Virus record (IMG/VR): IMGVR_UViG_2778261184_000007
Location: 1 to 34,194 of that record
DNA length: 34,194 nt
From: a virus
Lineage: Duplodnaviria; Heunggongvirae; Uroviricota; Caudoviricetes
Strand: one strand, 5' to 3'
The notes beneath the pieces are model-generated. The model made no database searches, had not been told where the DNA came from, and saw only the letters and a list, made by a program, of their open reading frames with translations. A program made the translations under genes and the position numbers. Shown in pieces: positions 6,287-32,510 of this stretch (position 1 is the first letter of the stretch; each line of letters starts with the position of its first letter).

Positions 6287-6340
6287 GAAAAACAACCTCT
6301 TTGTTTAGTTAAAAATACATCGTTGGTATAGGTAGGGATT

Positions 6341-6366
6341 AAGACTAAAACGTTGGTTTGGGGGAA
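6341..6366. other. Invertase crossover site 1 (cix/mix-like 26-bp imperfect palindrome), nearest the invertase gene
   Basis: Bottom strand reads TTCCCCCAAACC-AA-CGTTTTAGTCTT; the AAACC..GGTTT core resembles hix/gix/cix half-sites. Confidence 0.7.
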
Positions 6367-6864: not shown

Positions 6865-6883
6865 AAACGTTGGTTTGGGGGAA
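6858..6883. other. Invertase crossover site 2
   Basis: Same half-site TTCCCCCAAACC-AA-CGTTT on bottom strand, straddling the cassette 1 stop and the cassette 2 TTG. Confidence 0.7.
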
Positions 6884-7342: not shown

Positions 7343-7361
7343 AAACGTTGGTTTGGGGGAA
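7336..7361. other. Invertase crossover site 3
   Basis: TTCCCCCAAACC-AA-CGTTTTTATGCC on bottom strand. Confidence 0.7.
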
Positions 7362-7814: not shown

Positions 7815-7833
7815 AAACGTTGGTTTGGGAGAA
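7808..7833. other. Invertase crossover site 4
   Basis: Same motif with one substitution in the conserved half (GGGAGAAGG instead of GGGGGAAGG). Confidence 0.65.
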
Positions 7834-8301: not shown

Positions 8302-8307
8302 TTATAT

Positions 8308-8919: not shown

Positions 8920-9377
8920 TATGCGGCTCTCACAATATAATTGAAGGCAATATTGCGTGGACGGGTTTCATTCCCCCCTGAGGATTCCGTTCTGTATTGA
9001 CTGGAAAATTTACCATTAATCGCCCCTCCCTGGACGGCGTTATCTGTCGACAACAGACTATCCCCCCCTCTGTCATTTGGCACCAATACCGTGTTATCCC
9101 ACGCGTCCCATGACCGAATATTATGATAATGACTTCCAGTTAACCACCCCTGTATGCTTAAGATGCCCCTTCCCGCATCCACCCCGCGCCCATCATCCCA
9201 ACCGCGAATAAATTCTCCCCGTAAATCCGGTAATTTATTAGTGGGGTAAACCTTTGCCAGATTTGGGTACTTTTCAGAAGAAAATGCTGCTCCGTTACAT
9301 TTTAGCCAGCCCGTTGGTGGTGTTTCTAAGGGCCACGGAACGGGCACGCCAACGGGCAATGCTGAGCCTTCCCCCAA
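8919..9377 (-). CDS. Promoterless tail-fibre C-terminal tip cassette 5 (minus orientation, between the expressed tip and the chaperone)
   Basis: Begins at the TTG within crossover site 5; conserved N block, unique centre (…WLTGSHYHNIRSWDAWDNTVLVPNDRGGDS…), conserved RPRNIAFNYIVRAA end. Confidence 0.75.
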   Translation of the reverse strand: MGEGSALPVGVPVPWPLETPPTGWLKCNGAAFSSEKYPNLAKVYPTNKLPDLRGEFIRGWDDGRGVDAGRGILSIQGWLTGSHYHNIRSWDAWDNTVLVPNDRGGDSLLSTDNAVQGGAINGKFSSQYRTESSGGNETRPRNIAFNYIVRAA

Positions 9378-9394
9378 ACCAACGTTTCTATGCC
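9369..9394. other. Invertase crossover site 5 (inverted relative to sites 1-4)
   Basis: Top strand TTCCCCCAAACC-AA-CGTTTCTATGCC. Confidence 0.7.
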
Positions 9395-12137: not shown

Positions 12138-12202
12138 ACGAACATAGCCCCTTCATAAGCAATGAACCAATGGAGAGTATGCTCAGTTTGTGATTTCCGT
12201 TG

Positions 12203-12231: not shown

Positions 12232-13077
12232 TTAAACAGGTTGAAGGTGGTAATCCAAAGGCCACGCATCGAGTGGGGTTACATCAAGATGTAATTGCTT
12301 TTCTGCCGTTCTGTTCGGTATGGCGTTAAGAGAAATATTGTTTACCTGGCAGGAGGTATCACTACGGGATAGCATATCAGCCATACTCTCAGTAACATAA
12401 ACACCTTCAATTACCGAAACATCCGTAGACAGGCAATTTAGTATTTCTGCCACTTCAGGGAATACAGCACTAAGCCGAAACGAGACGCCATCAAAAACAA
12501 TATGCAATGGCAACAAAGGGGCTATTACTGTTTCGAAGTCAGATAACAATTTCTGCACAGCGGCTTCTTTATCCTGCTCTCCATATGAGCGATATAGCTT
12601 GTTCTGATCAACAACGACCAGCCCCCTTGATGTCAGGAAGAACTCACCGAATTGAGCCTGTGCCGTAGGTATTTCTATTTCGGTCGCAAAATATGAACCA
12701 TAGGGGTGTTTTTCTATATTTACAGGTGCATACAGCGGTTCCCAACTAACAGGAATACAACCGAATTCACGCCAGAATGTCTGCTCAATAGGCAAGATAG
12801 TACCTTTAAAGTGCACTTCATCTAAACGCTGCGCCAGAAGCATTGGCCTACGGGCATTATCTTTTTCAGTGATAACGAAAAAACGCCCGTATTCAGCAAT
12901 GCGGGCATCCATATCCTCACTGTCCATAGTGAAGAAGGATTTTCTGTTACTTATTCTTGTTAATATTGGTTCTACTGCCTCATTCCAGACATCCTGTAAA
13001 GCGTCTATAAAGGCACTCCAGAGATGTGAATCCTGCTTTACTTTAGTTAATCGTTCCTTAAGCCAATTATCTTTCAT
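12232..13077 (-). CDS. Baseplate protein (gp16-position, 281 aa)
   Basis: Position within the tail/baseplate gene string; no diagnostic motif recognised. Confidence 0.4.
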   Translation of the reverse strand: MKDNWLKERLTKVKQDSHLWSAFIDALQDVWNEAVEPILTRISNRKSFFTMDSEDMDARIAEYGRFFVITEKDNARRPMLLAQRLDEVHFKGTILPIEQTFWREFGCIPVSWEPLYAPVNIEKHPYGSYFATEIEIPTAQAQFGEFFLTSRGLVVVDQNKLYRSYGEQDKEAAVQKLLSDFETVIAPLLPLHIVFDGVSFRLSAVFPEVAEILNCLSTDVSVIEGVYVTESMADMLSRSDTSCQVNNISLNAIPNRTAEKQLHLDVTPLDAWPLDYHLQPV

Positions 13078-13087
13078 GCTAACCTCA

Positions 13088-14518
13088 TTACGGGTAAGAA
13101 ATGCTGAACGTGGAAGATTTCACGTCAAGATAAATGAAGTCATTAAAGTAAACTGCATCTTTCATATTTTGTATTGTTATGTCATAAGAGAGAAACATAT
13201 CCAGCGATTCTATTACTCGCCAAATATCTTTAACTTTTACCTGTGCATAACATTGCTGAGAATCATCATCACTCTGTAGTAATAAACTAAATGATGACGA
13301 ATCACGACCAAAATTATCTTCCAATGCTGCTTTAATAGCATTTTGAGCGTCGTCTATCAGAACATTTTTACGTGCAATACCTGTAAAATTTATAGTAAAT
13401 GGCTGTTCATTTGTATCTACATACTCGAACCGCTTGTTCAACTCATTTGGAACATTCTCTAGAGCTTTCAGTATTTCTGATTTTAGCTGAGCCTGGCTTA
13501 CACCCGGCTTATGTCCGCAAAAGAAAATTTTGTTGATGTTTCGAACGTCAAACCCAGTTATTTTCTCTTGTAACGCTTCGCCCCAAACGTTCAACCATGA
13601 AGTTCCATGAACAACATTCTGAATGAATTGGCGATAATCACCGCCCCATACCACTTGTTCATCGTATGCAACATAATACTGAGCACGATTTCGAGTTTCT
13701 TCTGTAGTTTCCATACCACTACCACCGGTAATGATCGAATCAGTTTTAAACTCAAGTGACTCCACATATTGAGCGATATTTCCAGCCGGTTCTAACTTTT
13801 GTCCTTCAGCCAAAGTATAGTCGCCAAGGCTAGCCATAACATCGATTCGAACCTGACAGCCTGCTGGAGGCATCATACCCATAGAACCATCACCAAACTT
13901 GACTCCAAGTTGTTCTGTAGGTTTATATGCCAATGAATAGTGCTTACTCTTGTCTCTGGACATTCTAAATAATGGGTTATATGTCCATTTTTCTTCTACG
14001 CCATCTGTAATAACATAAACATCCAGGCTAGAGACTTCTTTTGTTAACTCTCTGGAAAGCAACAATGTCAGAAATAAAGTTTCCTTCTCAATATCAAATG
14101 TAACGCTAACAGCTTCATGCTGTTTAGTTTCTACGCCAGAAACAGTTCCTCCAGCAGGAATTACAACACTGTTAATAATTGCCAAAGGTGTTTGGTCATT
14201 GGCAAGCAATTCAGCCCCGGCTGGTAATGTAATATCCCGATCAGTTTTATTGGTTATAGACGTTGTTCCGTATGAAGCACTAACAAATCGCCCTACGTAG
14301 CTACGGTCTTCAGCAACCGCTAAAATACTTGAGCGGCGCGTAGCCGTTGAAATAAGTCCCTCAGTGAGGCCGCGGCTTGCAAATGTACGGGCAATATAAA
14401 TAAGCTGTGATCCGAATATAGCGTGCATCTGCACAAACTGACTATTTACAAATCGTGACCACCATGTGTTTTCATTTAACTTAGCGTTAAATTTGTCCAG
14501 TAATTCTGTAATCGTCAC
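13088..14518 (-). CDS. Baseplate protein (BplA-position, 476 aa)
   Basis: Synteny; overlaps the upstream gene by 4 nt. Confidence 0.4.
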   Translation of the reverse strand: MTITELLDKFNAKLNENTWWSRFVNSQFVQMHAIFGSQLIYIARTFASRGLTEGLISTATRRSSILAVAEDRSYVGRFVSASYGTTSITNKTDRDITLPAGAELLANDQTPLAIINSVVIPAGGTVSGVETKQHEAVSVTFDIEKETLFLTLLLSRELTKEVSSLDVYVITDGVEEKWTYNPLFRMSRDKSKHYSLAYKPTEQLGVKFGDGSMGMMPPAGCQVRIDVMASLGDYTLAEGQKLEPAGNIAQYVESLEFKTDSIITGGSGMETTEETRNRAQYYVAYDEQVVWGGDYRQFIQNVVHGTSWLNVWGEALQEKITGFDVRNINKIFFCGHKPGVSQAQLKSEILKALENVPNELNKRFEYVDTNEQPFTINFTGIARKNVLIDDAQNAIKAALEDNFGRDSSSFSLLLQSDDDSQQCYAQVKVKDIWRVIESLDMFLSYDITIQNMKDAVYFNDFIYLDVKSSTFSISYP

Positions 14519-14889
14519 GCGCCCACCCCACTTGATTTCTGCATAACAATATCCATGCTCCCACCTTTCGCATAAAAACTAATTAATAAAGAATCTTCAG
14601 AAATTGATGTGCAACGAATCCCCTGCACATCCAAACCTGGCAAGTCTTGTCGTAGTTTTTTCATCATTCTCCCTTCAATAGCCACTTCAACTATGTGCGA
14701 AGTTTCAGAGCCGAATGGTTCATGCTTAAATTCTTCCATTGGATTCCCCCAAGAGGGTAAACCATAAACACTCCCTTCAGGGGTTCGTAACCACTCGTCA
14801 AGTCGGGCCATCCATGCTGCGGTACTTCCTTCTGCAATAATGACACCGCTCTCATTCGTTTGAAGTCTTGCGTCTATTTCATAAAGCAT
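14515..14889 (-). CDS. Small morphogenesis protein (PmgA-position, 124 aa)
   Basis: Synteny only. Confidence 0.35.
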   Translation of the reverse strand: MLYEIDARLQTNESGVIIAEGSTAAWMARLDEWLRTPEGSVYGLPSWGNPMEEFKHEPFGSETSHIVEVAIEGRMMKKLRQDLPGLDVQGIRCTSISEDSLLISFYAKGGSMDIVMQKSSGVGA

Positions 14890-14894
14890 CTGTA

Positions 14895-17800
14895 TTAATC
14901 CTCAAGCAGAGCATCCAGCGACGGGTCATTAATAGTTGTGCTAGCACGTGGTCGCGGTTGCGGCTGCGATGTTTTGACAACCTTATCCGGATCGCCTTTT
15001 GTATTGTTCTTGTTCACATTCAGAAGATCGTTCAGGATAGAGCAGATGTTATCCAGCGCCTTCAACATAGCAGGATCGTTATTTATAGTGTCAGTAGTTA
15101 ATGGTTGTCTTATTCCGCTTCGTGCGAGATCTGTTACAGTAGGAAGCTGTGGTGGCAAAGCAAGAAAAGGTTCTTGCACGGCAGACGCAGAGCCAAATAT
15201 GGCATTATTGGCTTCGTTTGATATACCTCTAATGCTATCTGCGGTTTGTTGAATACCATTATTCAGCCAACTACCGGCGCTCTTGGTAAGCGGGCTAATA
15301 GCCCTGGCAATTGTTGAGTTCTGCCCAGTAGCCTGATAAACCAAATCATTAACAATGCCTGTGCCATCTACCCCACCAATAAGTTGTGAAACGTTATCGC
15401 CAATTGCAGGTAACACAGCAGAGCTAATACGTTTCAGACCTGTTAATGACGAGTCAAACAAAGAGCCAAGCACCCCCTTATCTTCACCATCAATTACCTT
15501 GTATCCATTGTCATAAACTGGAATCCCCCTTGAGTTTACAGAGATTTTTTCACTCTCACTTGCCGAAGAAACACCGGAGAGAAGATCCACTGAAGGCATA
15601 TCGCGTTCAGCTTTTGGTCTTTTTTGTAAAGCGTCTCTTATATCAGTTACCTGGCTTGCTTTTTGAAATCCAAAAGATTTACCGGTTAAGCTGGATATCT
15701 TTTCAGTAAGAGCCTGATCCATTCCTTTCGCTTTTTCGGAAAGCGAAGATATAGAACCAAACGAAGTCGCCGACGCAAAATCCTTAATCAGGCCAAGGTT
15801 TGTACCAGCAAGGCTGGTAGCCGCACCTCCAAATAAATTACCTACCCCGCTGTCATTTATAGCGATTAATCTCTCAAGCAGACTTGATGGCGAGCCAGTA
15901 TTAACATCAACAATCTCTGGATTAATCGGTTGCGATTGATTGCCTGTTTTTTGTGGCTTTTTGACTGCCTGGGCATGTTGTGCAACCTCAATTGGCTGTT
16001 GTGTTGCTGTCGGAACGGCATTCAAAACTGGTTGAGCTGGAGATTTTCCATTAGCATATTTTACCTTGCGACCAACACTATATTGCGAATCGCGGGCAAT
16101 TAGCTGACCACCATTTTCTTTCTGAATTTTATTAATCCGCGCCAATGTTTCGTCAGAGAATTGTCCCTCCCATCGACCAGTGTTAGTGTTAAATGCTCCA
16201 AGTGCATTCTTAATGAACTCATTATTAACTGCCGGATTTCCGCCTTCTTTCGTCGCAATTGCACGAACTAATTGCGTCATAACCTCTGGGTTGCTGACAT
16301 CTATTTTTTCATTAGGCGATACACCAAGATATTTACTGACGTTATCAATATATTGGTTAGTATTGTTCTCATTTGGCGGTGCCCATTTTGAAATGATGCT
16401 GGATACCGTCTGTAACTTCTGATATCCCGCTGCAGCACTGGTGCCGTTGTAATAGCTGGAAACCTGGTTTGCCAGTGCCCTGATCCCTTCTTCAGGTGTG
16501 TTAAATCGCGCAAAACGTTGTTCACCCTTTGCATTTGGCGATTCCAGCGTCGCCCCTTCCTGGTTGGCAAAAACAAGATTACCGAGATTATTATTTCGGT
16601 AATTGCGGTTTTTAGCGTTGCTGCCGCCAATATTCAGATCCGCTGCAATGGTGTTGTTGGCAGGTGCACTAAATTCAGTTGGAGAAGTATACCCGTGCTC
16701 ACCAACTCCATCCTCGCCATTACGCCCACCTTGTAATTGTTCACCTAGAGAATGAATCGCATCGACAGTTTTTTTGGTGCCGTCTTCAACAGCTTTTTTT
16801 ACTTGTTTCGTGTTTTCGTCAGTGGATAAAAATGTATCCTTAAGGCTACCAAAAACAGATTTGGTGATATCTACCGCGCCGTTAACACCACGAGCAATAT
16901 CTCCGGTATCAAAATTCTGAAGTTTTTCACCTGCTCTTTCAAATCCTAGCGCAGAAATTCCTTTCCCTATCAAGTTCGTTGCGCCCGACACCAAGCCACC
17001 CATATCGAGCACATTAGCTGTTGCGTAAGCCGTTTTTTGCTGTTCGGATACAGCATCATCGTCACTTAAACCAAAGGCTGCCTTTTGCGCCTCTGTATCT
17101 GTGTAACCATCTATGGCGTCATATCCAGCCATTGCCAGCGAACCGATGATAGGGACCGCTCTTGCCGCTGTGGATGCTGCTGATTTAACACCTATTTTTG
17201 CTGCACTTTTGAGGGCTACAGATTCAGTTTTTTTCTTTGCAATGACTTCGCCGGTTTTAATGGTGGCATCTTCAGCCACAACACCAGCTGACTTCACGGC
17301 CTTAGCAGTATTTTTTGTTTCCTTTGCAATCCCCTTTGATGTATCGCTGATAGTGCTTACATCTTTGGGTTTGCTGATCTTATTTTTAACTACTTTTGCT
17401 GCTCCGACACCAGTGCCAGCCGCAGCGCTACCGGCAGCAACTTTTTCGCCAGCGGAGAGTGCTTTTTTCCCAAGATTGCGGCCTTTCCTTTTCGATTTGT
17501 TCCGTTTATTTTTTCCCGTCTGATCACCAATATTGATTTTATTTCTTCTGCTTGCTCGATTTTTCCAGAGATCACTTAAGCCGAACTTATTTCCAGAAGA
17601 CACTGATTTCCGAAGCTTAACTATCTCGTCAGAAACATTTTCCAGACCATCAATTATTTTGTTGTCATTGGTCTGAAGGATTTTGGTTTGCTCTTCTACT
17701 GCTTGTGCGGATTTTGTCTCAACAGCGTTATTGAATGCTTTTGCAGATGTTGCTTTTTGAGAATTCACCGCCGCCGGATAAGTAATTACTGGTGATATCG

Positions 17801-18677
17801 CTTTCGAGGTTGATGTTTCTTTTTTCCCCTTTTCTACCAATTCTTTAAGAGATTCTGCTTTACCTGTGATCTCTTTAGTTATGTCGTACATGCCACGAGC
17901 CGCCATCCATAACGGCCCACCAGCACCGACACCAGCTGCATTTGTTAAAGACTCTTCACTGGAAGACTGATTGCCATCTACCCCCATAATGGAACCTAGC
18001 TTTCTGAGAAAGCCAGCTTGTAATTTTGCGTCGGCTTTACGTGCGTTCTGCAATTCTTTTTTTCTGGCTACATCCTCATTGCTTTTTTGGGATACAAAAC
18101 GTCCATTACTATCCCGCAGCGGGCCTTTTAGACTTTGGGGGGATTGTGGTTCAAGAGGGGCTGAATTAGCAGCTACCGGTATAAAACCGTCCGATTTTCG
18201 GATGGTCTGACGTGATTGCACGGAGCGAACACTTTCTTGTGTGTTCGTTGCAACGATAGAGCGGTCCACGGTTTGGTTTATCGGTGCCCTTTCCTTTTTA
18301 GCAGGGAGACGTTTTTTATATGGGTTAGTTTGGACATCTCTAACGCTATCAGATGTACTTTGCTCGTAGTCTTTACGCCTGCGTGATAGTCTGTTGCTAA
18401 CTCTGCCTTGCCTTTCGTCCTGTTGCGTTATGGTGCTTGCCCCAGAAAGAATGGCGTCTTTTACCTCAGCAAGAGCTTTAAGTTCGTTTGTGCTCGCCCC
18501 CTGTATAGCGTCAATTATTGCGATACGGTCTTTATTCTCTTTCAAAATAACCTCTCTTTTGCCAGCGCGATCAACGTTTCCCGGCTTGAGCTTTGTATTT
18601 TTCTTCCAGGGCTTTTGACATATGGAGTGCTCGCCATTGCGGTAATTGTTCAACGTCGCTAACGGGCTGATATCCAT
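14895..18677 (-). CDS. sit: Sit-like tape-measure / structural injection protein (1260 aa) with an internal muralytic-like domain
   Basis: Very long protein in the tail cluster; Lys/Ala/Ser-rich low-complexity segment (about aa 340-520); domain …NLVFANQEGATLESPNAKGEQRFARFNTPEEGIRALANQV…KWAPPNENNTNQYIDNVSKYLGV… (about nt 16250-16650) resembles transglycosylase-type folds. Confidence 0.6.
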   Translation of the reverse strand: MDISPLATLNNYRNGEHSICQKPWKKNTKLKPGNVDRAGKREVILKENKDRIAIIDAIQGASTNELKALAEVKDAILSGASTITQQDERQGRVSNRLSRRRKDYEQSTSDSVRDVQTNPYKKRLPAKKERAPINQTVDRSIVATNTQESVRSVQSRQTIRKSDGFIPVAANSAPLEPQSPQSLKGPLRDSNGRFVSQKSNEDVARKKELQNARKADAKLQAGFLRKLGSIMGVDGNQSSSEESLTNAAGVGAGGPLWMAARGMYDITKEITGKAESLKELVEKGKKETSTSKAISPVITYPAAVNSQKATSAKAFNNAVETKSAQAVEEQTKILQTNDNKIIDGLENVSDEIVKLRKSVSSGNKFGLSDLWKNRASRRNKINIGDQTGKNKRNKSKRKGRNLGKKALSAGEKVAAGSAAAGTGVGAAKVVKNKISKPKDVSTISDTSKGIAKETKNTAKAVKSAGVVAEDATIKTGEVIAKKKTESVALKSAAKIGVKSAASTAARAVPIIGSLAMAGYDAIDGYTDTEAQKAAFGLSDDDAVSEQQKTAYATANVLDMGGLVSGATNLIGKGISALGFERAGEKLQNFDTGDIARGVNGAVDITKSVFGSLKDTFLSTDENTKQVKKAVEDGTKKTVDAIHSLGEQLQGGRNGEDGVGEHGYTSPTEFSAPANNTIAADLNIGGSNAKNRNYRNNNLGNLVFANQEGATLESPNAKGEQRFARFNTPEEGIRALANQVSSYYNGTSAAAGYQKLQTVSSIISKWAPPNENNTNQYIDNVSKYLGVSPNEKIDVSNPEVMTQLVRAIATKEGGNPAVNNEFIKNALGAFNTNTGRWEGQFSDETLARINKIQKENGGQLIARDSQYSVGRKVKYANGKSPAQPVLNAVPTATQQPIEVAQHAQAVKKPQKTGNQSQPINPEIVDVNTGSPSSLLERLIAINDSGVGNLFGGAATSLAGTNLGLIKDFASATSFGSISSLSEKAKGMDQALTEKISSLTGKSFGFQKASQVTDIRDALQKRPKAERDMPSVDLLSGVSSASESEKISVNSRGIPVYDNGYKVIDGEDKGVLGSLFDSSLTGLKRISSAVLPAIGDNVSQLIGGVDGTGIVNDLVYQATGQNSTIARAISPLTKSAGSWLNNGIQQTADSIRGISNEANNAIFGSASAVQEPFLALPPQLPTVTDLARSGIRQPLTTDTINNDPAMLKALDNICSILNDLLNVNKNNTKGDPDKVVKTSQPQPRPRASTTINDPSLDALLED

Positions 18678-19513: not shown

Positions 19514-19655
19514 TTATTCCTCCGAAAAGCAGGTATCTGTTCATTTTCCAGAGGATAGGGAGTGTGTGATTTGCGATGGGGATTGAATGAAGATCTTTGC
19601 TAGTCGAGAAGCGATTATTGAGGGTGATTTTTACACCTTAAGTGACGCTACTCAC

Positions 19656-21038: not shown

Positions 21039-21746
21039 TCAGAATTTGATCACTCCACTCACAGCCCCCTTTAACGCACTTGTAGCCATGCCAGCGGCAC
21101 CGTTGACCAAAGCAGAAACACCTGAGCCTGCGGATGTGTATTTCTGGAAAGTGATTGGGTATGACAAGAACTCTGACACCTGATCACGTGAGCGTGTGAT
21201 TTCCCCAAGTTGCGTAGGAAATACGCGCATTTCTTCTTCCAGTTCTTTTCCGCCGTCCTGAGTCACCCGGTAGACACGGATTTTCATCAGATATTCAGGA
21301 GGAAGGTTTATTGTTCCATCAGGATTTGTTACACGAGAACGACGCTCTTTGAACCAGTCCATGATCTTGCCATCTTCGGTATCCCTCACGGTCATAGTGA
21401 CCGGTCCGGCGCTAACATAGGTTGGCTTGCTGAATTCTACGCTGCCGATCACCTTGCTTTCTGTCTCAATGTTTCCACTGCTGTAGGTGATATCCTTCAC
21501 GAACATATCGAAGCCGTTCAGGCCATCCACTTCAACGGTCCACTGCCACCCCTGGGCGTAACGGATACGCATAGCGGCAGCAACAATATTTTTCCCGTAG
21601 GCAATATCGCTACTGTAATTCCCGCTTACCCCGCCGCCTGATATGGCTTTATCAAGAATGTCGCTAATGAGGTTGCTGGTGAATGATTTCGTGTTAAATG
21701 ACAATGCGGTGGTCAACGTTCTACCAACGCTGCTGAAAATACTCAC
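21039..21746 (-). CDS. Tail structural protein (possible tube, Tub-position, 235 aa)
   Basis: Position after the PmgB-like gene; no diagnostic motif. Confidence 0.35.
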   Translation of the reverse strand: MSIFSSVGRTLTTALSFNTKSFTSNLISDILDKAISGGGVSGNYSSDIAYGKNIVAAAMRIRYAQGWQWTVEVDGLNGFDMFVKDITYSSGNIETESKVIGSVEFSKPTYVSAGPVTMTVRDTEDGKIMDWFKERRSRVTNPDGTINLPPEYLMKIRVYRVTQDGGKELEEEMRVFPTQLGEITRSRDQVSEFLSYPITFQKYTSAGSGVSALVNGAAGMATSALKGAVSGVIKF

Positions 21747-21761
21747 TCTGCGCCTCCAGCG

Positions 21762-22313
21762 TTAAAAAATGGTAGCCCCCGGAATAATGGCCCGGTTTGA
21801 GGACATTTTTTCCTCAATCTCCTGCACGCGGGCATATAGCGTGGCTTCATCGGGCAGATCTGAGTAGTCAAATTTCCCGTCGATGGACGCTCTACGCTGC
21901 CGGGCGACATTTCTTACATTGATAAGCGCCTCCAGATATTCCTCCAGCATTCCAATGATTGCAGGAGGCACTTGCCATTCATCCAGCTCTCTGTCGCGTA
22001 GATTAACCAGATACAGCATTCGAAAAGGCCAGCGTTCTGAACCTGTTAGCTCTAATTCAATAAATCCGGATAATTCATCCGAATAGACCAACAAGCCGTT
22101 GTTGTCGGTAACATGAACCAGAGAGAGATAATCTTCTGGCAACGGGATTGCAGTACCACCAGCTTTTTCAAGTTTTAACGTTTTCACTACCCCTGCCCTG
22201 TCCTGATACGTGGTCAGAGCTTTGATCAGGAATGCTTTCAACGTTTCTTCTTCACGCACAAGCAGCGGATTAAATCGCTCTTTAACGCTTTCTAATAATT
22301 CAATTGGTGTCAT
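21762..22313 (-). CDS. Phage morphogenesis protein (183 aa)
   Basis: ORF in the structural string. Confidence 0.35.
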   Translation of the reverse strand: MTPIELLESVKERFNPLLVREEETLKAFLIKALTTYQDRAGVVKTLKLEKAGGTAIPLPEDYLSLVHVTDNNGLLVYSDELSGFIELELTGSERWPFRMLYLVNLRDRELDEWQVPPAIIGMLEEYLEALINVRNVARQRRASIDGKFDYSDLPDEATLYARVQEIEEKMSSNRAIIPGATIF

Positions 22314-22367
22314 TGTTGCCTACAACTCAATAACAAGGATGTTCCCGCCACAAGGGCGGGATAGGGA

Positions 22368-22859
22368 TTATTCCGCCCAGTTGTAAACAATGCGCAGGGA
22401 AGGTTTAACGACCGCCGTTACGTCTTCGGATGAGAAGTCCACGGCGTCGGAATACACTTTGCAATGAGAATATGTGCGGATCAGACCTTTATGGTTACCG
22501 CTATTCGATTCAGCCGCCGCCTGTAAGGTAATTTCCAGATATTCTTTTCCGTATACCATCTGTTTTACAGCGGCGAGAACTGCGCCTTCGATAGTTTCCG
22601 CGCATGTGACCTGAAATTCACCAGAGTTGCGTAATGGTCCGTGCTGGTTGAATTTCATGCCACCGGGGGCGTAATCCTCCACATCTTCACGTGTCATTTC
22701 TGGTAACTGAGCTGTACGAACTAGTACAGACAGATGTTCGTAACCCTTAATGGTCATCCAATATTCAGAACCAATAAGTTTTTCGCCTGCAGCCAGGTTT
22801 TTATTAAACCGGGATTTTAGAAAGGCCATATCGGCTTTTGTATTTGCAAAACCGGACAT
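22368..22859 (-). CDS. Phage tail/baseplate protein (163 aa)
   Basis: ORF in the structural string; short GC hairpin (22344-22360) in the gap to the next gene. Confidence 0.35.
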   Translation of the reverse strand: MSGFANTKADMAFLKSRFNKNLAAGEKLIGSEYWMTIKGYEHLSVLVRTAQLPEMTREDVEDYAPGGMKFNQHGPLRNSGEFQVTCAETIEGAVLAAVKQMVYGKEYLEITLQAAAESNSGNHKGLIRTYSHCKVYSDAVDFSSEDVTAVVKPSLRIVYNWAE

Positions 22860-22867
22860 AAATACTC

Positions 22868-23458
22868 CTACACAAAAACAGATGAGATATTGCTACGGTT
22901 GATCGATGTGTTACCGCTGCATTGCAGGGTTACCGTGTTATGAGTGAAATAGCCTTCCGGTGTGCGCGGGGCGTCCAGTTGGTAACTCACGCTTTTGATA
23001 ACAACGTCGGTAAGGGCTATGTTCCTACCTATGTTTAACGTTACTGTCTCCGGGCGACGACCGAATGGCGCTACATTGTTCAGTTCCGGCGATTCCATCT
23101 TCAGCAATGCTGTAATGGCTGCGTTCACTTCAAGTTGCGCGTTCGTTGTCGCCATGAAATCAATTATCAGATTAAATTCAGGCGGTTGCTGACCTTCCCA
23201 AACAAGCATTGAGTTGAAGAGGGTTTTTGTTGTTACGCCGGTTGCGGTCTGAAGCGTATCTGCAAGAGAGCCAGCCGCAGCGCTAATACCGCCAAGCAAA
23301 CCTCCTACTGACTGGTTTTCAAATGGTGATTGCCACATTGATGACAGTTCTGCGGTAGATCCTTCACCGATATAACCGACGACCATATCCTCTGAAGAGA
23401 GGATATAAACCTTCATTAACGGACTTATTCCGTCAGGCATTATCGCGCCGCAAATCAA
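22868..23458 (-). CDS. Phage tail/baseplate protein (196 aa, TTG start inferred)
   Basis: GGGAG SD 9 nt upstream of TTG; the first in-frame ATGs lack an SD. Confidence 0.35.
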   Translation of the reverse strand: MICGAIMPDGISPLMKVYILSSEDMVVGYIGEGSTAELSSMWQSPFENQSVGGLLGGISAAAGSLADTLQTATGVTTKTLFNSMLVWEGQQPPEFNLIIDFMATTNAQLEVNAAITALLKMESPELNNVAPFGRRPETVTLNIGRNIALTDVVIKSVSYQLDAPRTPEGYFTHNTVTLQCSGNTSINRSNISSVFV

Positions 23459-23507
23459 ACGCTATTTCTCCCAGGTAGAGGCCACCTTTGCAGGCGGCCT
23501 ATGTCAC

Positions 23508-24248
23508 TTACAAACCGCGTTTTTTGCGAATGCGCATTGATTTTTTGCGGTTGATATTCGCTACGGATGTATGTGCTTTGCGGCGTGCTTTTTTCAGCGC
23601 CTGTTTTTGCAATGACGTCATGCGGCGAGGACGCGGGCGTTTACGGATGATGGTAACCTTGCCATCACGAACCACTTTTTTACGTACCGCTTCCAGCATT
23701 GCGCTATCACCACCAGCAACGGTGTAAATGGCAATAGCTGTTTCCATCATGTCGGTGTCGCTTTCGGAAAGAGCGTCATAAACACGTTCGGCAGCTGAGT
23801 CATCTTCATCGTCGATCATTTCGGTTACATCGTCCTGATCAGCGCCAAGCGCAACAGCTGCATCAGCAAGAGCTGCGAGAGCATCGTTATAAGCATCGAT
23901 TTGCTCATCGGTGAAATCGGTGTCTTCATCGATATCAGCCAGGCCAGCCATAGTGATTGCTAATGCATCAAATGAGTCAGCCTCCGGATCACCATCTTCA
24001 ACCCAACCAGCAAGCATGGAAGCTGCCAGGCTGCGCATATCACCTTGTGCACGGGATTCAACCGCTTCCATCATCGCGGTTTCAATGTCGCCTTTGGGCT
24101 TTGGTTGAGTGTCCTTTCCTTTCTGTCCTGCGCTTTCCAGCATGGCGTTATCATTATTGTCCTGCGTGGATTTACCACCGCTTTCAAAGCAGCCAGAACC
24201 GAAAATCGCACGCATAAAAGGATCAGCAGTATAATTTTTCATATTCAA
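23508..24248 (-). CDS. 246-aa protein with acidic body and strongly basic C-terminal tail
   Basis: D/E-rich centre (…DEDTDFTDEQIDAYND…DDEDDSAAE…) followed by RKRPRPRRMTSLQKQALKKARRKAH…RKKSMRIRKKRGL. Confidence 0.4.
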   Translation of the reverse strand: MNMKNYTADPFMRAIFGSGCFESGGKSTQDNNDNAMLESAGQKGKDTQPKPKGDIETAMMEAVESRAQGDMRSLAASMLAGWVEDGDPEADSFDALAITMAGLADIDEDTDFTDEQIDAYNDALAALADAAVALGADQDDVTEMIDDEDDSAAERVYDALSESDTDMMETAIAIYTVAGGDSAMLEAVRKKVVRDGKVTIIRKRPRPRRMTSLQKQALKKARRKAHTSVANINRKKSMRIRKKRGL

Positions 24249-24257
24249 ACCTCTCTC

Positions 24258-24280
24258 CCCCGCATCATTTAGCGGGGGGT
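24258..24280. other. GC hairpin (CCCCCGC-loop-GCGGGGG) immediately downstream of the sheath-like gene stop
   Basis: On the minus transcript it sits between the stop codon and the SD of the next gene; candidate attenuator. Confidence 0.35.
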
Positions 24281-24286
24281 TATAAA

Positions 24287-25945
24287 TCAGCGCATCAGAA
24301 TTGGCTTACCGACGATTCGGCGAGCTGTACCGGTCGGACAAACAGACCAGGACACTTCCCACAGATCGATGTCCTTTTGGACAACCTGAACAACATATGG
24401 ATCTTCGCCCTGGGACTTGTCACGTGGAGTAACCAGCGCACCGGCTGCAACGTAACGGTCAAGCAATTCAGTCATTGCTTTCATTAGCGTTTCTTTGGTA
24501 ATGCCATCCGGTTCGTGCTTAATCGCCTGAGCTACTTCATAGAAATCTCTGGCGATGGCGTTCATCAAGGAAGACACATGCTGGAATCGCAGATAGTTGT
24601 TTTTGCTGTAAGTTGTTAAAGAGTCGTCAATGTAAACGGACCCGTCAGCAGCAACTGAAACTGGATTAATGCGCGCAAGAACGAACGCTTCACGATCAAC
24701 TGCACCGATATTTGGAATTCGGGCAATGTTCTGTCGATCAATAATCGCGCGTGATATACCTGCAGGTGCGTAATGCCAACCACCAACATCCGGTACCAGC
24801 GCCACTCCTTTTGCTTTCGCTACGAATGCGTCGCAGCTAATGCCATAGACGACATTCATTCCAGTGAAAGTATCTCGGCAGGAGAGCGGGAAGTAGTAAC
24901 GGCTTGGTTGATGTGAGCCGCCAAAACTATGGCTTTTCGCTTCTGAAATAGCGTTTTCAGGTGTCTGGTTGCCCTTCAGGTCATAGAACATGTCTACGCG
25001 AACATCTTCAGCCAGCTTTTTGATTGCGGCTAAGGCGGATGCGTCATAACAACCCAGTGACAGCAATGCGGTGTAATTAACCTCTGAAGCTTCGAGAACC
25101 TTTAATGCTTCCAGATAGTCTTCAGTGTCAATTTCGGACAGATCTCCATCAGTACCACCTTCAAAAGCTACATCCTCAAAAATGAGTTGAGCAGCGGATG
25201 CTTCTGCATTATCTGCCAGTACGGCACCAATGCGAGTGGACTGGCTTTCAAGCAGTGTCGGAATCCATGCTGGTTGGCCCATGTCGTTAGTGCCTTCTGG
25301 ATTGAAAGACACCTGGTGGCTTTCCAGCACCTCAATGGACCCATCGGTTTGTTTTTCTTTCAGCGTCAGCGTAAAGAGTTCGCTTTCTTCATCATCGCGA
25401 GTTAGTGATAACGTGCGATTTTGAGATGCATCACCATCTTTGATGAAGAATAATGCCTTCTCTTCACCTTTAATCCTGGGCGTCTCTTTGGGTGTGAAGG
25501 ACACTGATTGAGTCGTTGCAGTTGAAGCAACACCAACGCTTAATGTGTCACCTGGATTTACTGTGGTTTCAGTAGGTTCAACGGAAAGTTCTTTGCTCGC
25601 CTTTGCCGCTTTTGCTTTGCCCACAACGGAAACAGAAATACCCGGCACCTTCATGTCTTTAGCGCAAACTCGAACGACATATCCAGAGCCGCCTTTTACT
25701 GCACGCTCCACGTGGCGATATGGTTCAAATGCCGCACCCTGGCGAGGGTGAATCGGTGAACCTAATACGCTTTGATAAGTCGTATCGTCAACTTTCAGTA
25801 CCTTACCCGGTGCGCCACGACGCGATATTACAAGCCCAGCAAAGACGGATGCGCCACCGCTGGTATTGGTGAGGGTAGCGTCAGCATTTACTGACATTAC
25901 AGCAACGCCAGCTGCCTGCCCTACCGAAAAACTAATCTTATTCAT
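24287..25945 (-). CDS. Contractile tail sheath-like protein (552 aa)
   Basis: Size and C-terminal region (…GWHYAPAGISRAI…ARINPV…) consistent with myovirus sheath proteins; flanked by hairpins as is common for highly expressed structural genes. Confidence 0.5.
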   Translation of the reverse strand: MNKISFSVGQAAGVAVMSVNADATLTNTSGGASVFAGLVISRRGAPGKVLKVDDTTYQSVLGSPIHPRQGAAFEPYRHVERAVKGGSGYVVRVCAKDMKVPGISVSVVGKAKAAKASKELSVEPTETTVNPGDTLSVGVASTATTQSVSFTPKETPRIKGEEKALFFIKDGDASQNRTLSLTRDDEESELFTLTLKEKQTDGSIEVLESHQVSFNPEGTNDMGQPAWIPTLLESQSTRIGAVLADNAEASAAQLIFEDVAFEGGTDGDLSEIDTEDYLEALKVLEASEVNYTALLSLGCYDASALAAIKKLAEDVRVDMFYDLKGNQTPENAISEAKSHSFGGSHQPSRYYFPLSCRDTFTGMNVVYGISCDAFVAKAKGVALVPDVGGWHYAPAGISRAIIDRQNIARIPNIGAVDREAFVLARINPVSVAADGSVYIDDSLTTYSKNNYLRFQHVSSLMNAIARDFYEVAQAIKHEPDGITKETLMKAMTELLDRYVAAGALVTPRDKSQGEDPYVVQVVQKDIDLWEVSWSVCPTGTARRIVGKPILMR

Positions 25946-28136: not shown

Positions 28137-28294
28137 GGTTAAGCCCTAAATTCGGGCGCGGCGTGAAGGTTCTTTTGACGGGCTAACAATACCTACTTTG
28201 TGATTTAGTCAATAGGTTTAGTAAAATAAAATATATTAACACTCATGTTGTTATGTGATTTAATTTTAGTTTTCTAACACAAAACATTAGAGTT

Positions 28295-28703: not shown

Positions 28704-29162
28704 ATGAGTCACGTTAACCCATCAAAAACACAATATCGCTTAATGCTGGCGATCGCGTCAGCTATACCAACCAGCCTGAATCCCCCGACAGGCTATCCCG
28801 CTGTTGTTGATGATTGTTTTCAGTATTACGGAGAAGACATCCTGAGCCAGTCCAAAGCGCTCAAGCAGTTATGTAAGGCAGGTATTCTTCACTGTATCGG
28901 AGATCCGGACGATTTTGTTGTTATGCTGGCGGATCGTGACTCTTTTCTACTGTCCTGGAAAGCCGGTGCGCGCGAAGCACGTTTGGGGAATGGTATTGGT
29001 TACATAGACTATAGTGATTGTCCGCTGGCATTTGCTGGTGGATATATGCATTGGCATGAGCGAAATAGAGGCCGTCAGCGTCAGTATCGCTTGAGTGACT
29101 TTAACGTCTGTCACGGTTTCGAAGAAGCTGACAGCCAGGACATCTGGCTTCAGGAGCCTTGA
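28704..29162 (+). CDS. Hypothetical 152-aa protein, second gene of the accessory operon
   Basis: SD AAGGGA upstream of ATG; 16-nt spacing from the upstream gene; Cys/His-containing (…DCFQYY…LHCIGDPDD…YSDCPLAFAGGYMHWHERNRG…CHGF…). Confidence 0.5.
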   Translation: MSHVNPSKTQYRLMLAIASAIPTSLNPPTGYPAVVDDCFQYYGEDILSQSKALKQLCKAGILHCIGDPDDFVVMLADRDSFLLSWKAGAREARLGNGIGYIDYSDCPLAFAGGYMHWHERNRGRQRQYRLSDFNVCHGFEEADSQDIWLQEP

Positions 29163-29482
29163 TCCCCCTTCCCTTCCCAAATCTCCCTGTTTCTTTGGTT
29201 ATTCAGTGCGTTTCGTTGGTTGCATTCGTCGATCGTGCTGAATAACTGTTCAGCGTATGTCGGATACTTGTTTAACAGCACTGGCGTGTCCTCTGGCACT
29301 AAACAAGGGGAGTAATCAATCAGATTTGCCTGCGGCTTGCTGGTGGCTTCTACGGTAATTTTCACTGGCACGCTGGTTGATGGCTTTTGCCCGTTCCCGC
29401 TGCATCCTGATAACGTCATCAGGCACACGCACATCGTTAATCCCAGCACGGCGCAACGCATTTTCAAGGCGAGTGATTTCAT
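29150..29482 (-). CDS. Outer-membrane spanin (o-spanin, Rz1-like lipoprotein, 110 aa)
   Basis: Signal peptide with lipobox LSGC (MKSLALKMRCAVLGLTMCVCLMTLSGC); starts inside the i-spanin gene in another frame and extends beyond it (overlapped architecture); SD GAGAGGAA. Confidence 0.7.
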   Translation of the reverse strand: MKSLALKMRCAVLGLTMCVCLMTLSGCSGNGQKPSTSVPVKITVEATSKPQANLIDYSPCLVPEDTPVLLNKYPTYAEQLFSTIDECNQRNALNNQRNREIWEGKGDQGS

Positions 29483-29789
29483 TCTGGCTTTCCTCTCGTT
29501 GTTTGATTAGGTTGGCATTCAGTTCTGCTGTTTTGCGCTGGTACTCCTTTTCCAGTGCTTTAATTCTTTCGTTTTCGGTCAGCATGGCTGAGCGAGCGTT
29601 CTCACTTAACTGTAATGCGGTAGAAAGCGTGTTGTTCGTGCTTTCCAGTTGTGATTTTGAGTCTTCAAGCGATCGGACATACCTGATGTGTTCGATAACT
29701 GCCGTCGTTGTTCGGTAAATTCCAGAAATGGCTAAAAGCGCAATTACAATCAAAATTATCTTTTTCAAAACCATCCTCTCCAGGTTCAT
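29316..29789 (-). CDS. Inner-membrane spanin (i-spanin, Rz-like, 157 aa)
   Basis: N-terminal TM helix (KKIILIVIALLAISGIY) followed by a long coiled-coil periplasmic domain. Confidence 0.7.
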   Translation of the reverse strand: MNLERMVLKKIILIVIALLAISGIYRTTTAVIEHIRYVRSLEDSKSQLESTNNTLSTALQLSENARSAMLTENERIKALEKEYQRKTAELNANLIKQREESQNEITRLENALRRAGINDVRVPDDVIRMQRERAKAINQRASENYRRSHQQAAGKSD

Positions 29790-29844
29790 TTTTGGTGTTA
29801 AACATGTACCAATTTACATCCTTTTGTGTGCCTAAGTGGTGTTT

Positions 29845-30654
29845 CTATGGTTCCTTTTTGGTGTTCTTTTGGAGCGCATCGATAACGCCTTGTGGCATGA
29901 TTAAACTGATTGCCGGACTCATTACTGCATCATCCAGTAGAGAACCAGTTAACGTGATGGCGACAGCGTTCTCTAAACCTTTGGTTGCCTGAGTGGTTGA
30001 CGTTTTAATGCGACCTGTAAGGGCTACGACACCCTCACTTGCTGAGTTAATTTCGGAGAGTAAAACTTCGGCGGCTGTCACTGCTTCCCGTAAAGCATCA
30101 ATTTCATCCTGAGTAATGACTGGAGCCTGAGCGCCCCCAGCACCACCCTGTCCACCATTGCTTTCACCACCACCAGCACTTCCGGCAGCTTCAATTTTTG
30201 CGTTAATGGCGTTCATGGCGGTTTTCAGAGCATCAAGTTTTAGCGCCGTCAATGCGTCCGTTAGAGATTGCGGAATGGAAACATTCCCCATTCCCTCAAC
30301 AAGGGCGAAAGCAGGTATGGGGGTCAGCTCGTTACCTTTTGCGTAGCATTCCCAGCCAATCTTCATCTGTAACAGCTCTGATGGCTTGGTGTATGGGGAA
30401 AGAGAATCAGCCAGTGATGAAGACGCTTTGCTGGCCTCATTGAGCTGTTCAGAAAAGCCAAGCAATTGAGTAGTCCAGGCCGAAACAGAATCAGGATAGG
30501 TTTTATCGGCGTGAACTATTCCCTGTATGGCGCTGGCGAGCGATGAGGCTTTTACAGAAGCTGCCCGGCTTATGGTTATAGATTCTGGTGTAGAGATACC
30601 GGCATCTGACAGAATTTTGAAGGCTTTAACTTCACCTATTGAATCAAGCATTAT
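29845..30654 (-). CDS. 269-aa Ser/Ala/Gly-rich protein translationally coupled to the PAAR-like gene
   Basis: ATGA overlap with the upstream gene stop; internal Gly-rich linker GSAGGGESNGGQGGAGGAQAP. The ORF track extends upstream on an alternative start. Confidence 0.5.
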   Translation of the reverse strand: MMLDSIGEVKAFKILSDAGISTPESITISRAASVKASSLASAIQGIVHADKTYPDSVSAWTTQLLGFSEQLNEASKASSSLADSLSPYTKPSELLQMKIGWECYAKGNELTPIPAFALVEGMGNVSIPQSLTDALTALKLDALKTAMNAINAKIEAAGSAGGGESNGGQGGAGGAQAPVITQDEIDALREAVTAAEVLLSEINSASEGVVALTGRIKTSTTQATKGLENAVAITLTGSLLDDAVMSPAISLIMPQGVIDALQKNTKKEP

Positions 30655-30935
30655 GCAACCTGAAAAATATCCTCGCCGTTGGCGATAACAGAACCACAAG
30701 AAAGCGGATCGCCTACACAGACAACTCCCTTTCCACCTATCGAAAACCATACTCGCGTCGATACAGCTGCCCCTGGATGTGCACTGTTACCGTCAGTGTG
30801 ACTGGGAAACATGGCACCATCTACAACAACTGGCTTACCGTTAACGGTGAACCAGGGAACGGTTTCAGCTACCAGTCGCGGCGGAAATCCTCCGTGACCA
30901 GAACAAAGGGTGTCGCTGGTGGCTATTGCGCTCAT
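30651..30935 (-). CDS. PAAR-like spike-tip domain protein (94 aa)
   Basis: Three-repeat pattern reminiscent of PAAR proteins: …CSGHGGFPP…FTVNGKPVVVDGAMFPSH…GVVCVGDPLSCGSVIANGEDIF…. Confidence 0.55.
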   Translation of the reverse strand: MSAIATSDTLCSGHGGFPPRLVAETVPWFTVNGKPVVVDGAMFPSHTDGNSAHPGAAVSTRVWFSIGGKGVVCVGDPLSCGSVIANGEDIFQVA

Positions 30936-30979
30936 TCTTCATCTCCTGGTTATCCTCCTATTGTCATCACTTTGTTATT

Positions 30980-31176
30980 TCGTCATTCAAACTGAGAGTT
31001 AAATTTCGGAATATTTTTGTATTCTCAATTCATTCTCAAATAAATCTCACTGTCAGACCATCATTCATTTGGTGATTAAGATATTCTCAAAATGAACTCA
31101 ATAATCACTCTTTTTTATCTCTTTTGGTGTGGATTTTTGGTTGCTTCTCTTTTAAAATTGCATTTTGATTCTCAAA
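30980..31176. repeat. Centromere-like repeat region upstream of parM (parC-type)
   Basis: Repeated ATTCTCAA(A) units at 31021, 31032, 31083, 31168 and TCATTCA variants in an AT-rich divergent promoter region. Confidence 0.5.
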
Positions 31177-31201
31177 TGTGTCTCAGAAGTGGAGCAAGAA
31201 G

Positions 31202-32158
31202 ATGCGCATTTTTATCGATGATGGTTCAACCAATATCAAAATGCTGTGGGAGCACGACGGGGAAACTCGCACTCACATCAGCCCTAACAGCTTTAAGCGC
31301 GGATGGTCAGCAACATTTGGTGCGGGCAAGCCGTTTAACTATGTCATTGACGACGAAAAGTATTCGTATGATTTGATCTCGCCAGATGTTCTGCCGACGA
31401 ATAACGTGGAATGGCAATACAGCCCGCTTAACGTCCTGGCTGTTCACCATGCCCTGCTGACAAGTGGCATTGAGCCGCAGGAAGTAGAAATTGTGGTCAC
31501 GCTGCCTCTGGCGGAGTTTTACGACGACGACGCGCAATACAATCTCGATAACATCGAGCGCAAGAAAGCCAGCCTTATGCGCCCCGTCACGCTGAATAAA
31601 GGCAATGTGTTCACGATTAAGAAAGTTACGGTACGCCCGGAGTCTATTCCGGCAGGAATTGGCCTGTGCGACAATCTGAACCCTGCCCATTCTGTTCTTA
31701 TCGTCGATTTGGGTGGAACTACCCTTGATGTTTCAATGGTCGCCGGGCAAATGACGGCAGTTTCCCGTGTTTTTGGCGATTCGAATCTTGGCGTCTCTCT
31801 GGTTACCAGGGAAGTAAGGCAAGCACTTGCCAGAGCCAATACCGAAACGTCAAATTACAATGTCGATCAGCTCATTATTAACCGCCACGATGAAGATTAT
31901 CTGAACGACAATATCAATGACCCATCAGCGGTTGGTGATGTGAAAAAGGCCATTGCCGCAAGCATTGACCGTCTGCGTACCCGCGTTCTTGATGTGATTG
32001 GCGACTTTAAAGGATATACGCATGTCATGGTGATCGGTGGTGGCGCACCGCTGGTGGCAGATGCAATTCGCGAGCAAGTTAATATTCGTGATGACCGTTT
32101 CTTCGTGGCGGATGACCCGCAACTTGCTCTTGTTCATGGCCTGAAAGCAATCGGTTAA
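31202..32158 (+). CDS. parM: Actin-like plasmid segregation ATPase ParM/StbA (318 aa from ATG)
   Basis: N-terminus MRIFIDDGSTNIKMLW…HISPNSFK…, …NVEWQYSPLNVLAVHHALLTSG… and DLGGTTLD match the R1/R100 ParM/StbA pattern; SD GGAG 7 nt upstream. Confidence 0.85.
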   Translation: MRIFIDDGSTNIKMLWEHDGETRTHISPNSFKRGWSATFGAGKPFNYVIDDEKYSYDLISPDVLPTNNVEWQYSPLNVLAVHHALLTSGIEPQEVEIVVTLPLAEFYDDDAQYNLDNIERKKASLMRPVTLNKGNVFTIKKVTVRPESIPAGIGLCDNLNPAHSVLIVDLGGTTLDVSMVAGQMTAVSRVFGDSNLGVSLVTREVRQALARANTETSNYNVDQLIINRHDEDYLNDNINDPSAVGDVKKAIAASIDRLRTRVLDVIGDFKGYTHVMVIGGGAPLVADAIREQVNIRDDRFFVADDPQLALVHGLKAIG

Positions 32159-32165
32159 CGAGGTA

Positions 32166-32510
32166 ATGTCCATGTCTCAGGAACGTAAGAAAGTGATGAT
32201 TTATCTTCGCCCAGAGGCTTATGCCAATGAAAAGGCGGCGAGCGAGAAGATAAAAAAACATAGCGATATGGCAAGAACCGCATTGTTGGCAGGGCTTGCG
32301 CTGGGAGAAGTCGATAGCAGGCTTCCAGGATTACTGGCTTCCCTGCTGACCGAAGACAATAACCCGGAGCTGATCCGAAAAATGCTGGCATCCTTCCTGG
32401 AACTACCAGCTGCGGTTGAGGAGCGCCCTGCCTCCATTGAGCCAGTGAAGGAGCAAGTTGTTGCCAAAAGCGCGTCGGCGCGCAATCTGGCTGACTCTCT
32501 ACCTGATTGA
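32166..32510 (+). CDS. parR: ParR/StbB-like centromere-binding adaptor (114 aa)
   Basis: Directly downstream of parM; …RTALLAGLALGE… resembles the ParR helix. Confidence 0.6.
   Translation: MSMSQERKKVMIYLRPEAYANEKAASEKIKKHSDMARTALLAGLALGEVDSRLPGLLASLLTEDNNPELIRKMLASFLELPAAVEERPASIEPVKEQVVAKSASARNLADSLPD

Follow-up and report, generated by a model that had tools for sequence, protein, structure and literature searches.

The closest described relatives of the two genes considered here are upfC and upfB of phage P1. In a 2026 cryo-EM paper, P1 UpfB is presented as a 'tripod' anchored on the spike tip, an assignment that rests on a medium-resolution map and a fitted AF3 trimer model, and the authors speculate that gp5, UpfC and UpfB form a membrane-piercing apparatus (PMC12810830). 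A later, independent AF3 model places UpfB on UpfC and terms the role of the tripod unclear (PMC13611949); the copy number of UpfB differs between the two papers, three trimers in one and three copies in the other. UpfC of P1 was predicted to be a gp5.4-like tip and proved dispensable (PMC9024508), has been built into two baseplate cryo-EM models (PMC12810830; bioRxiv 10.1101/2025.07.21.665459), and binds the blunt end of gp5 in one copy per particle (9vyi; PMC12810830). Both P1 genes are non-essential for plaques, as judged by knockout and CRISPRi (PMC9024508; PMC10695390). In T4, gp5.4 is dispensable for assembly and is needed on hosts with truncated LPS (PMC12407873).

Source of the window and its PAAR gene

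The window, by which we mean the whole stretch of 34,194 nucleotides analysed, is a D6-like, P1-related E. coli phage-plasmid. It is collinear with Escherichia phage D6, a P1-related plasmid-prophage (NC_050154 / MF356679), save for positions 5577-10997, the tail-fibre inversion region, and the region 29000-32500 that surrounds the pair is 98.1% identical to D6. The cassette is 100% identical to that of the 91.6-kb E. coli plasmid NZ_CP069886.1 and is found on 121 records of a plasmid collection, nearly all of them non-mobilizable; among the matches listed, the plasmid records measure about 78-94 kb, with Escherichia, Salmonella and Shigella as hosts. The proteins of the pair differ from those of D6 by a few substitutions, D6 orf57 being 97.9% identical to the 94-aa UpfC and orf56 98.5% identical to the 268-aa UpfB, and the D6 record already labels these genes 'similar to P1 upfC' (PAAR) and 'similar to P1 upfB'. 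With the P1 orthologues described and the D6 genes annotated, the system is already known and the finding an ordinary one; its discovery value is small, given the 98% identity to genes already annotated in D6 and a virion structure that accommodates the P1 orthologues. Public annotation serves the cassette badly: on the 121 plasmid records, UpfB and both spanins are labelled 'hypothetical', and the PAAR gene is at times misnamed 'alanine racemase' or filed as 'moron'. Furthermore, the D6 clade provides a second, very divergent UpfB (27% identity), which is usable for testing the conservation of tip attachment. The features of the locus are collected in Table 1.

Table 1. Features of the upfC-upfB-spanin locus (positions in the window)
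Feature	Position	Strand	Basis or remark
Putative late-promoter element AAATAACAAAGT	30969-30980	minus	Motif 33 nt upstream of upfC ATG
-10-like hexamer GACAAT	30960-30965	minus	Downstream of AAATAACAAAGT
Shine-Dalgarno AGGAG	30943-30947	minus	7 nt before upfC ATG, read from sequence
upfC orthologue, predicted 94-aa PAAR spike-tip protein, 9.5 kDa	30651-30935, stop included	minus	Homology, fold
upfB orthologue (by sequence), 268 aa, acidic (pI 4.65), predicted all-alpha	29845-30651, stop included	minus	Homology, AF2
Gly/Ser/Ala-rich disordered linker in UpfB, residues ~157-175	30127-30183	minus	pLDDT, alignment
Rz-like i-spanin, 157 aa from first ATG, N-terminal membrane anchor	29316-29789	minus	phrog_214, 1e-15
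Rz1-like o-spanin lipoprotein, lipobox LSGC	29150-29482	minus	phrog_456, 2.8e-5

The initial annotation took the 94-aa protein for a PAAR spike tip and looked to structure prediction for a conical PAAR fold with metal-binding His/Cys; it is borne out, as sequence, predicted fold and conservation of the putative metal ligands all agree. First of all, the protein matches Pfam PF05488 (PAAR_motif) with 27.2 bits, barely over the curated cut-off of 27 bits (27.0), and the same family is precomputed on most UpfC homologues. It matches PHROG 281 at 8e-29 and, in the PDB, chain 9vyi_A ('UpfC') at E 1.4e-35 and T4 gp5.4 at E 1.4e-5, and it is 56% identical to P1 UpfC. Second, the AF2 model, made with 34 homologues as input (pLDDT 95.6), is a compact all-beta cone of pseudo-threefold arrangement that is superimposable on solved PAAR structures: Foldseek gives a TM of 0.96 with an rmsd of 0.8 A to P1 UpfC in the baseplate map (9vyi), 0.93 to T4 gp5.4 bound to gp5 (4ku0_D), and 0.87 and 0.88 to the T6SS PAARs 4jiw_D and 4jiv_D. 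Third, H14, H46, H53 and C80 are invariant among the 34 homologues and align with the His/His/His/Cys of T4 gp5.4. The metal site at the PAAR apex reportedly consists of three His and one Cys, a finding that is said to go back to Shneider and colleagues in 2013, and we take these four residues of UpfC to be the putative ligands of such a site. Sequence and model together thus identify the 94-aa protein as an orthologue of P1 UpfC and a predicted monomeric PAAR spike tip, and by analogy with P1, the D6-type UpfC would sit on the blunt end of trimeric gp5 in one copy per particle.

Some of the public labels point elsewhere, to a T6SS-type PAAR moron that serves the host bacterium rather than the virion: PHROG 281 belongs to the category 'moron, auxiliary metabolic gene and host takeover', NCBI uses the name 'T6SS PAAR', and NF033420 (T6SS_PAAR_dom) is matched weakly. 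That match, however, fails the NCBIfam equivalog cut-off by a wide margin (34.2 bits against 124), and the structures nearest to the UpfC model are phage spike tips. The P1 orthologue sits on gp5 in the solved baseplate 9vyi, the motif upstream of upfC (see below) is common to virion operons, and the cassette is restricted to phage-plasmids of ~80-95 kb. The moron reading is refuted for practical purposes, and we assign it a negligible probability.

UpfB and its junction with upfC

Judged by sequence, the partner of UpfC is a divergent full-length orthologue of P1 UpfB. The two proteins are 27.7% identical over 263 of 268 aa and share the invariant positions Y52-P53, Q95, G99-W100, M146 and N150; the tblastn E-value is 3e-7 when all phages are searched and 1e-22 when the P1 locus is, and the protein matches phrog_1559 at 2e-110. 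The start M-L-D is invariant across homologues, which sets the length at 268 aa and not at the 269 aa first noted. A longer reading of 301 aa, from the ATG at 30750, was rejected: every homologue begins with the invariant MLD, and the extension overlaps upfC out of frame. The earlier description of a Ser/Ala-rich protein with a glycine-rich linker is accurate: Ala makes up 14.6% and Ser 11.2% of the residues, and the Gly-rich tract GSAGGGESNGGQGGAGGAQ lies at residues ~156-174.

The AF2 model of the UpfB monomer (pLDDT 82.5, pTM 0.73) is elongated and all-alpha, with ten predicted helices, of which seven lie within residues 5-158 and are followed by a 58-residue helix (181-238) and two short ones. 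Residues 160-173 of the intervening linker have a pLDDT below 50, and no other block of the family alignment is as poorly conserved or as rich in gaps as the linker; conserved blocks are found at residues 1-20, 51-60, 91-107, 141-150 and 221-260. The family is small: a profile run against 1.84 billion representative proteins recovered only 77 clusters; its full-length members (about two-thirds of the clusters) measure ~236-265 aa and have a single architecture, the others being shorter fragments, and among sequenced phages it is confined to P1, P7, D6 and their relatives.

Searches of the Pfam and NCBIfam libraries placed UpfB in no family, and sequence searches of the PDB found no UpfB chain or other match, with P1 UpfB as the query as well. 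The protein has no transmembrane-grade hydrophobic segment (maximum KD-19 hydropathy 1.39) and no signal peptide. When the model was compared with the PDB by Foldseek, the matches were generic helical bundles (BAR domains, chemoreceptor sensor domains) with E >= 0.037 and TM <= 0.28, which we rejected as non-specific. Homology to the T4-like gp5.1 was rejected as well, at an hhalign probability of 2.5%. Against BFVD, Foldseek gave weak matches to DUF7217 proteins (E 1e-3, TM 0.41-0.55); at the sequence level, eight candidate ORFs of kuttervirus CBA120 contained no DUF7217 match, the UpfB-family HMM matched nothing in 50 kb of CBA120, and the literature searched does not mention DUF7217. The domain search suggested for the partner by the initial annotation yielded no enzymatic or toxin domain, Pfam or NCBIfam family, transmembrane segment or solved structural match.

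The stop codon of upfC and the start codon of upfB form a TAATG at 30649-30653, in which one nucleotide (30651) is common to both genes. This 1-nt overlap, as TAATG or TGATG, is kept in 35 of 37 loci; in one locus the upfC TAG directly abuts the upfB ATG, and in P1 the genes are separated by an 8-nt spacer and upfB has its own Shine-Dalgarno. Inspection of the sequence upstream of the upfB ATG revealed no good Shine-Dalgarno at the usual distance. Given this and the 1-nt overlap, it is therefore a reasonable inference that upfB is translated by termination-reinitiation. The tight coupling proposed from the start thus stands, with TAATG in place of ATGA as the junction.

Both ORFs are real genes, conserved in P1 and in 36 related loci, which were drawn from viral and genome collections. 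Pairwise dN/dS is 0.15-0.25 for UpfB, 0.01-0.06 for UpfC, the major capsid protein and ParM (0.04-0.05 for the PAAR gene upfC), and 0.14-0.57 for the spanins. UpfB diverges more than UpfC in every related locus (for example, 59% versus 89%, or 38% versus 60%) and its evolutionary rate is 3-5 times that of UpfC, the capsid protein or ParM. Positive selection was considered and rejected, there being no gene-wide sign of diversification; the dN/dS of 0.15-0.25 therefore indicates a functional protein under relaxed purifying selection.

These data bear on the proposal that UpfB is an effector, docked as cargo on the PAAR tip, from which it would be delivered to the host interior to serve, for instance, host takeover or anti-defence. 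Its rate of evolution, several times that of UpfC, the capsid protein and ParM, would be in keeping with such cargo, as would the non-essentiality of upfB in the laboratory (PMC10695390) and the general experience that PAAR proteins of the T6SS commonly carry or dock effectors (PMC12407873). The libraries searched, however, gave UpfB no catalytic or toxin domain and no signature of Pfam, NCBIfam or PADLOC type, Foldseek returned only generic helical bundles (E > 0.03), a dN/dS well below 1 gives no sign of an arms race, and the architecture is uniform and free of the modular C-terminal swapping known from effectors. We consider effector delivery to be very unlikely. Where the initial annotation envisaged a spike tip with an injected effector or adaptor, the tip and its partner are thus retained, the P1 orthologue having been placed there (PMC12810830), and the effector is dropped, as the libraries searched gave no such domain.

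Operon context and the role of the pair

The pair heads a four-gene operon of upfC, upfB, an Rz-like and an Rz1-like gene, and this order is kept in P1 and in 36 of 36 related loci. The i-spanin gene, whose start in the D6 annotation lies 7 codons later, occupies the position of P1 ppfA (annotated Rz), and its 3' part is overlapped by the o-spanin gene, whose product has a weak match to Pfam O_Spanin_T7 and is 31% identical to P1 mlp/Rz1. From their sequences, the two downstream genes qualify as two-component spanins of the Rz/Rz1 type.

The window contains five copies of a 12-nt pattern, AAATMACAAAST, where 1.0 would be expected. Each copy is on the minus strand and lies 33-58 nt ahead of the first gene of an operon; the operons in question are those of lydA, R, pmgB/sit, gene 23 and upfC, which concern lysis or the virion, and a -10-like hexamer follows each copy. 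Most related loci have the core AAATCACA(A/G)AC ahead of upfC, at about -42 to -50, within flanks that are unrelated. A generic scan for sigma-70 promoters and terminators gave hits that were not above those in shuffled sequence. For P1, the number of Lpa-dependent late promoters is given as 11 (PMC10695390), and by analogy we infer that the element upstream of upfC is a late promoter.

The initial annotation placed the baseplate genes 17 kb away and regarded the context of the pair as unexpected. The distance is correct for the gene16/bplA/pmgA/sit block (12232-18677, ~17 kb from the pair), but the tube, pmgG, gene 21 and sheath genes (21039-25945) are 4-9 kb from it. The end of the capsid gene lies ~1 kb from the last gene of the operon and ~1.7 kb from upfB, and in D6 the spike and hub genes 5 and 6 are ~7 kb away on the other side, beyond the end of the window. 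Nor is the context an unexpected one, as P1-type genomes scatter their virion genes over many late operons, the order upfC-upfB-spanins is the same in all of the loci compared, and the upstream motif is common to four other virion or lysis operons.

We consider it likely that the pair belongs to an upfC-upfB-spanin late operon of a D6-like phage-plasmid and encodes a PAAR tip and a helical partner associated with that tip. Transcription from a late promoter directly ahead of upfC would yield the pair together with both downstream spanin genes, and upfB would be translated right after upfC through the stop/start coupling at TAATG. The single-copy PAAR cone of UpfC would cap the blunt end of the trimeric, beta-helical gene-5 spike and sharpen it for penetration of the outer membrane, with its apex steadied by a metal that three His and one Cys coordinate. 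UpfB, elongated and helical, would rest against the faces of the PAAR cone, forming the three-legged 'tripod' reported in P1. UpfC and UpfB would thus make up a single assembly at the distal tip, which departs from the tail along with the spike upon contraction. By analogy, the D6-type UpfB may act as P1 UpfB does despite 27% identity, and it would be part of the virion, on the PAAR tip as three legs or as trimers, as has been claimed for P1. The tripod may then stabilise the tip, shield it, or make the first contact with the envelope.

The conserved linkage to spanin genes, in P1 and in 36/36 related loci, together with a dN/dS similar to that of the spanins, could also speak for a UpfB that is not part of the virion: it may be a cytoplasmic chaperone or cap for the PAAR protein, comparable to the Eag/DUF1795 or DUF4123 proteins that serve PAAR/VgrG cargo in the T6SS, or an accessory of the envelope or lysis that works with the spanins. 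LC-MS/MS of P1 virions, in which Table 1 has 23 proteins attributed to the virion, does not mention UpfB (PMC9024508); the second cryo-EM study of the P1 baseplate does not mention it either (bioRxiv 10.1101/2025.07.21.665459), and no atomic model of UpfB has been deposited. The same mass spectrometry, however, also missed UpfC, gp5, gp26 and PmgA, all of which are in the cryo-EM model, and extra density at the tip of the P1 spike fits a UpfB trimer model (PMC12810830). Moreover, UpfB has neither the signal peptide nor the transmembrane segment that a periplasmic or lysis role would call for, and it matches no chaperone family in the libraries searched. We judge a chaperone or lysis accessory to be unlikely.

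If UpfB is instead a tip component, as we prefer, a broader proposition can be formulated, namely that UpfB-type tripods are a distinct, fast-evolving class of helical attachments, docked on PAAR proteins and adapting the tip to different envelopes or LPS, with structural relatives among DUF7217 proteins and an envelope function shared with the spanins. We regard this as improbable and advance it only as a speculation. If true, the DUF7217 proteins of Ackermannviridae and Andersonviridae would extend the UpfB-type tripod class beyond P1-like phages, adaptation through the tripod would parallel T4 gp5.4, which is essential on truncated-LPS hosts, and the invariant co-transcription with the spanins would reflect a shared envelope-directed function and not mere synteny.

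Comparison with known systems

The locus can be compared with three described systems. The T6SS PAARs (VCA0105, 4jiv; c1882, 4jiw) have the conical PAAR fold in common with UpfC (TM 0.87-0.88), and the concept of a partner borne on the cone is also found there, in the form of docked or fused effectors. Sequence identity is 18-24%, on the other hand, UpfC is below the NCBIfam equivalog cut-off, and the partner here, devoid of an effector or adaptor domain, belongs to a phage late operon.

T4 gp5.4 (4ku0, 5iv5) has the same fold as UpfC and the same His/His/His/Cys positions, and is likewise a single small protein, dispensable for plaques, that caps a trimeric beta-helix, although identity is about 25-29%. 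In T4, too, the PAAR gene has a small partner gene directly beside it, the two overlapping by 1 nt. The PAAR gene of T4-like phages, however, lies inside the baseplate cluster (5, 5.1, 5.4, 6) with that neighbour upstream, and gp5.1 has no detectable relation to UpfB.

P1 differs from the D6-type locus in several respects. Its UpfB is only 27.7% identical, its upfC and upfB are separated by the 8-nt spacer with a Shine-Dalgarno of its own instead of the 1-nt TAATG overlap, its spanin genes are separate whereas they overlap here, and its plasmid-maintenance neighbour is ParA/ParB/RepA, in contrast to the ParM/StbA-type system here. The gene order, on the other hand, is the same, with upfC and upfB followed by the Rz-like (ppfA) and Rz1-like (mlp) genes. 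The UpfB proteins align from end to end, with invariant residues in common and the Gly/Ser linker at the same place, and the UpfC proteins are 56% identical and have a near-identical predicted fold (TM 0.96).

Partners of the PAAR gene

The AF2 model of UpfB, the all-alpha protein encoded at 29845-30651 downstream of the PAAR spike-tip gene upfC (30651-30935), finds its top structural matches in BFVD among DUF7217 proteins (E 1e-3 to 0.66, TM 0.31-0.55), which come from Pectobacterium phage Wc4 (Andersonviridae), Escherichia phage FEC14 (Ackermannviridae, genus Kuttervirus), Serratia phage 3M and Salmonella phage 38. A sequence link between UpfB and DUF7217 was not found in CBA120 (UpfB-family HMM against 50 kb; 8 CBA120 ORFs). 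In the T4-like phages RB49 and Melville, gene 5.1, whose product has 169-188 aa, lies upstream of the PAAR gene 5.4, whereas upfB lies downstream of upfC. Like upfC and upfB, genes 5.1 and 5.4 overlap by 1 nt. A comparison with hhalign detects no homology between the gene 5.1 product and UpfB (probability 2.5 %). Coupling of the PAAR gene to a small partner may thus be a theme that recurs with non-homologous partners.

The PAAR tip protein carries two misleading labels: 'alanine racemase' is the name given to UpfC orthologues in several NCBI/UniRef and plasmid annotation entries, and 'moron, auxiliary metabolic gene and host takeover' is the category of the family in PHROGs.

Putative signals and a gene overlap flanking the upfC operon

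Five lysis/virion operons in the window are preceded by the same 12-nt motif, AAATMACAAAST, and after it a -10-like hexamer; the motif is a candidate for a late-promoter element in D6-type phages. It has no obvious match to the inverted repeat of 9 bp that is described for late promoters of P1 (PMC10695390). The 242-nt gap that separates upfC from the divergent parM/stbA gene also contains four repeats, probably the parC centromere at which ParR (StbB) of the ParM-type partition system binds. At the other end of the operon, the 3' ends of the o-spanin (Rz1-like) gene on the minus strand and of the convergent 152-aa gene on the plus strand overlap tail to tail by 13 nt (29150-29162).

Coordinates of the features discussed (whole stretch unless a locus is named)
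Feature	Position	Strand	Remark
AAATMACAAAST copies	5220-5231, 12185-12196, 19561-19572, 28195-28206, 30969-30980	-	
DNA invertase	5714-6295	-	
Four tail-fibre C-terminal cassettes	6358-8301	+	tandem, promoterless
Fifth tail-fibre C-terminal cassette	8919-9377	-	adjoins tail-fibre assembly gene
Expressed tail-fibre gene	9388-11694	-	
152-aa gene	28704-29162	+	phrog_8101, unknown function
Four repeats	31021-31185		contain ATTCTCA(A)
ParM-type partition system	31178-32510		
Genes 5.1 and 5.4, RB49	1935-2794		RB49 locus (L041)
Genes 5.1 and 5.4, Melville	1992-2794		Melville locus (L042)

The tail-fibre inversion region

The window is collinear with the P1-related phage D6 except in one stretch only, 5577-10997, which contains the DNA invertase and the five tail-fibre cassettes. 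Each cassette is tied to 9150-9432 and 9621-9857 by inverted repeats of 217-283 nt. The organisation of this stretch resembles a switch of host range by multiple inversion (Min/shufflon-like) more than the two-state C segment of D6.
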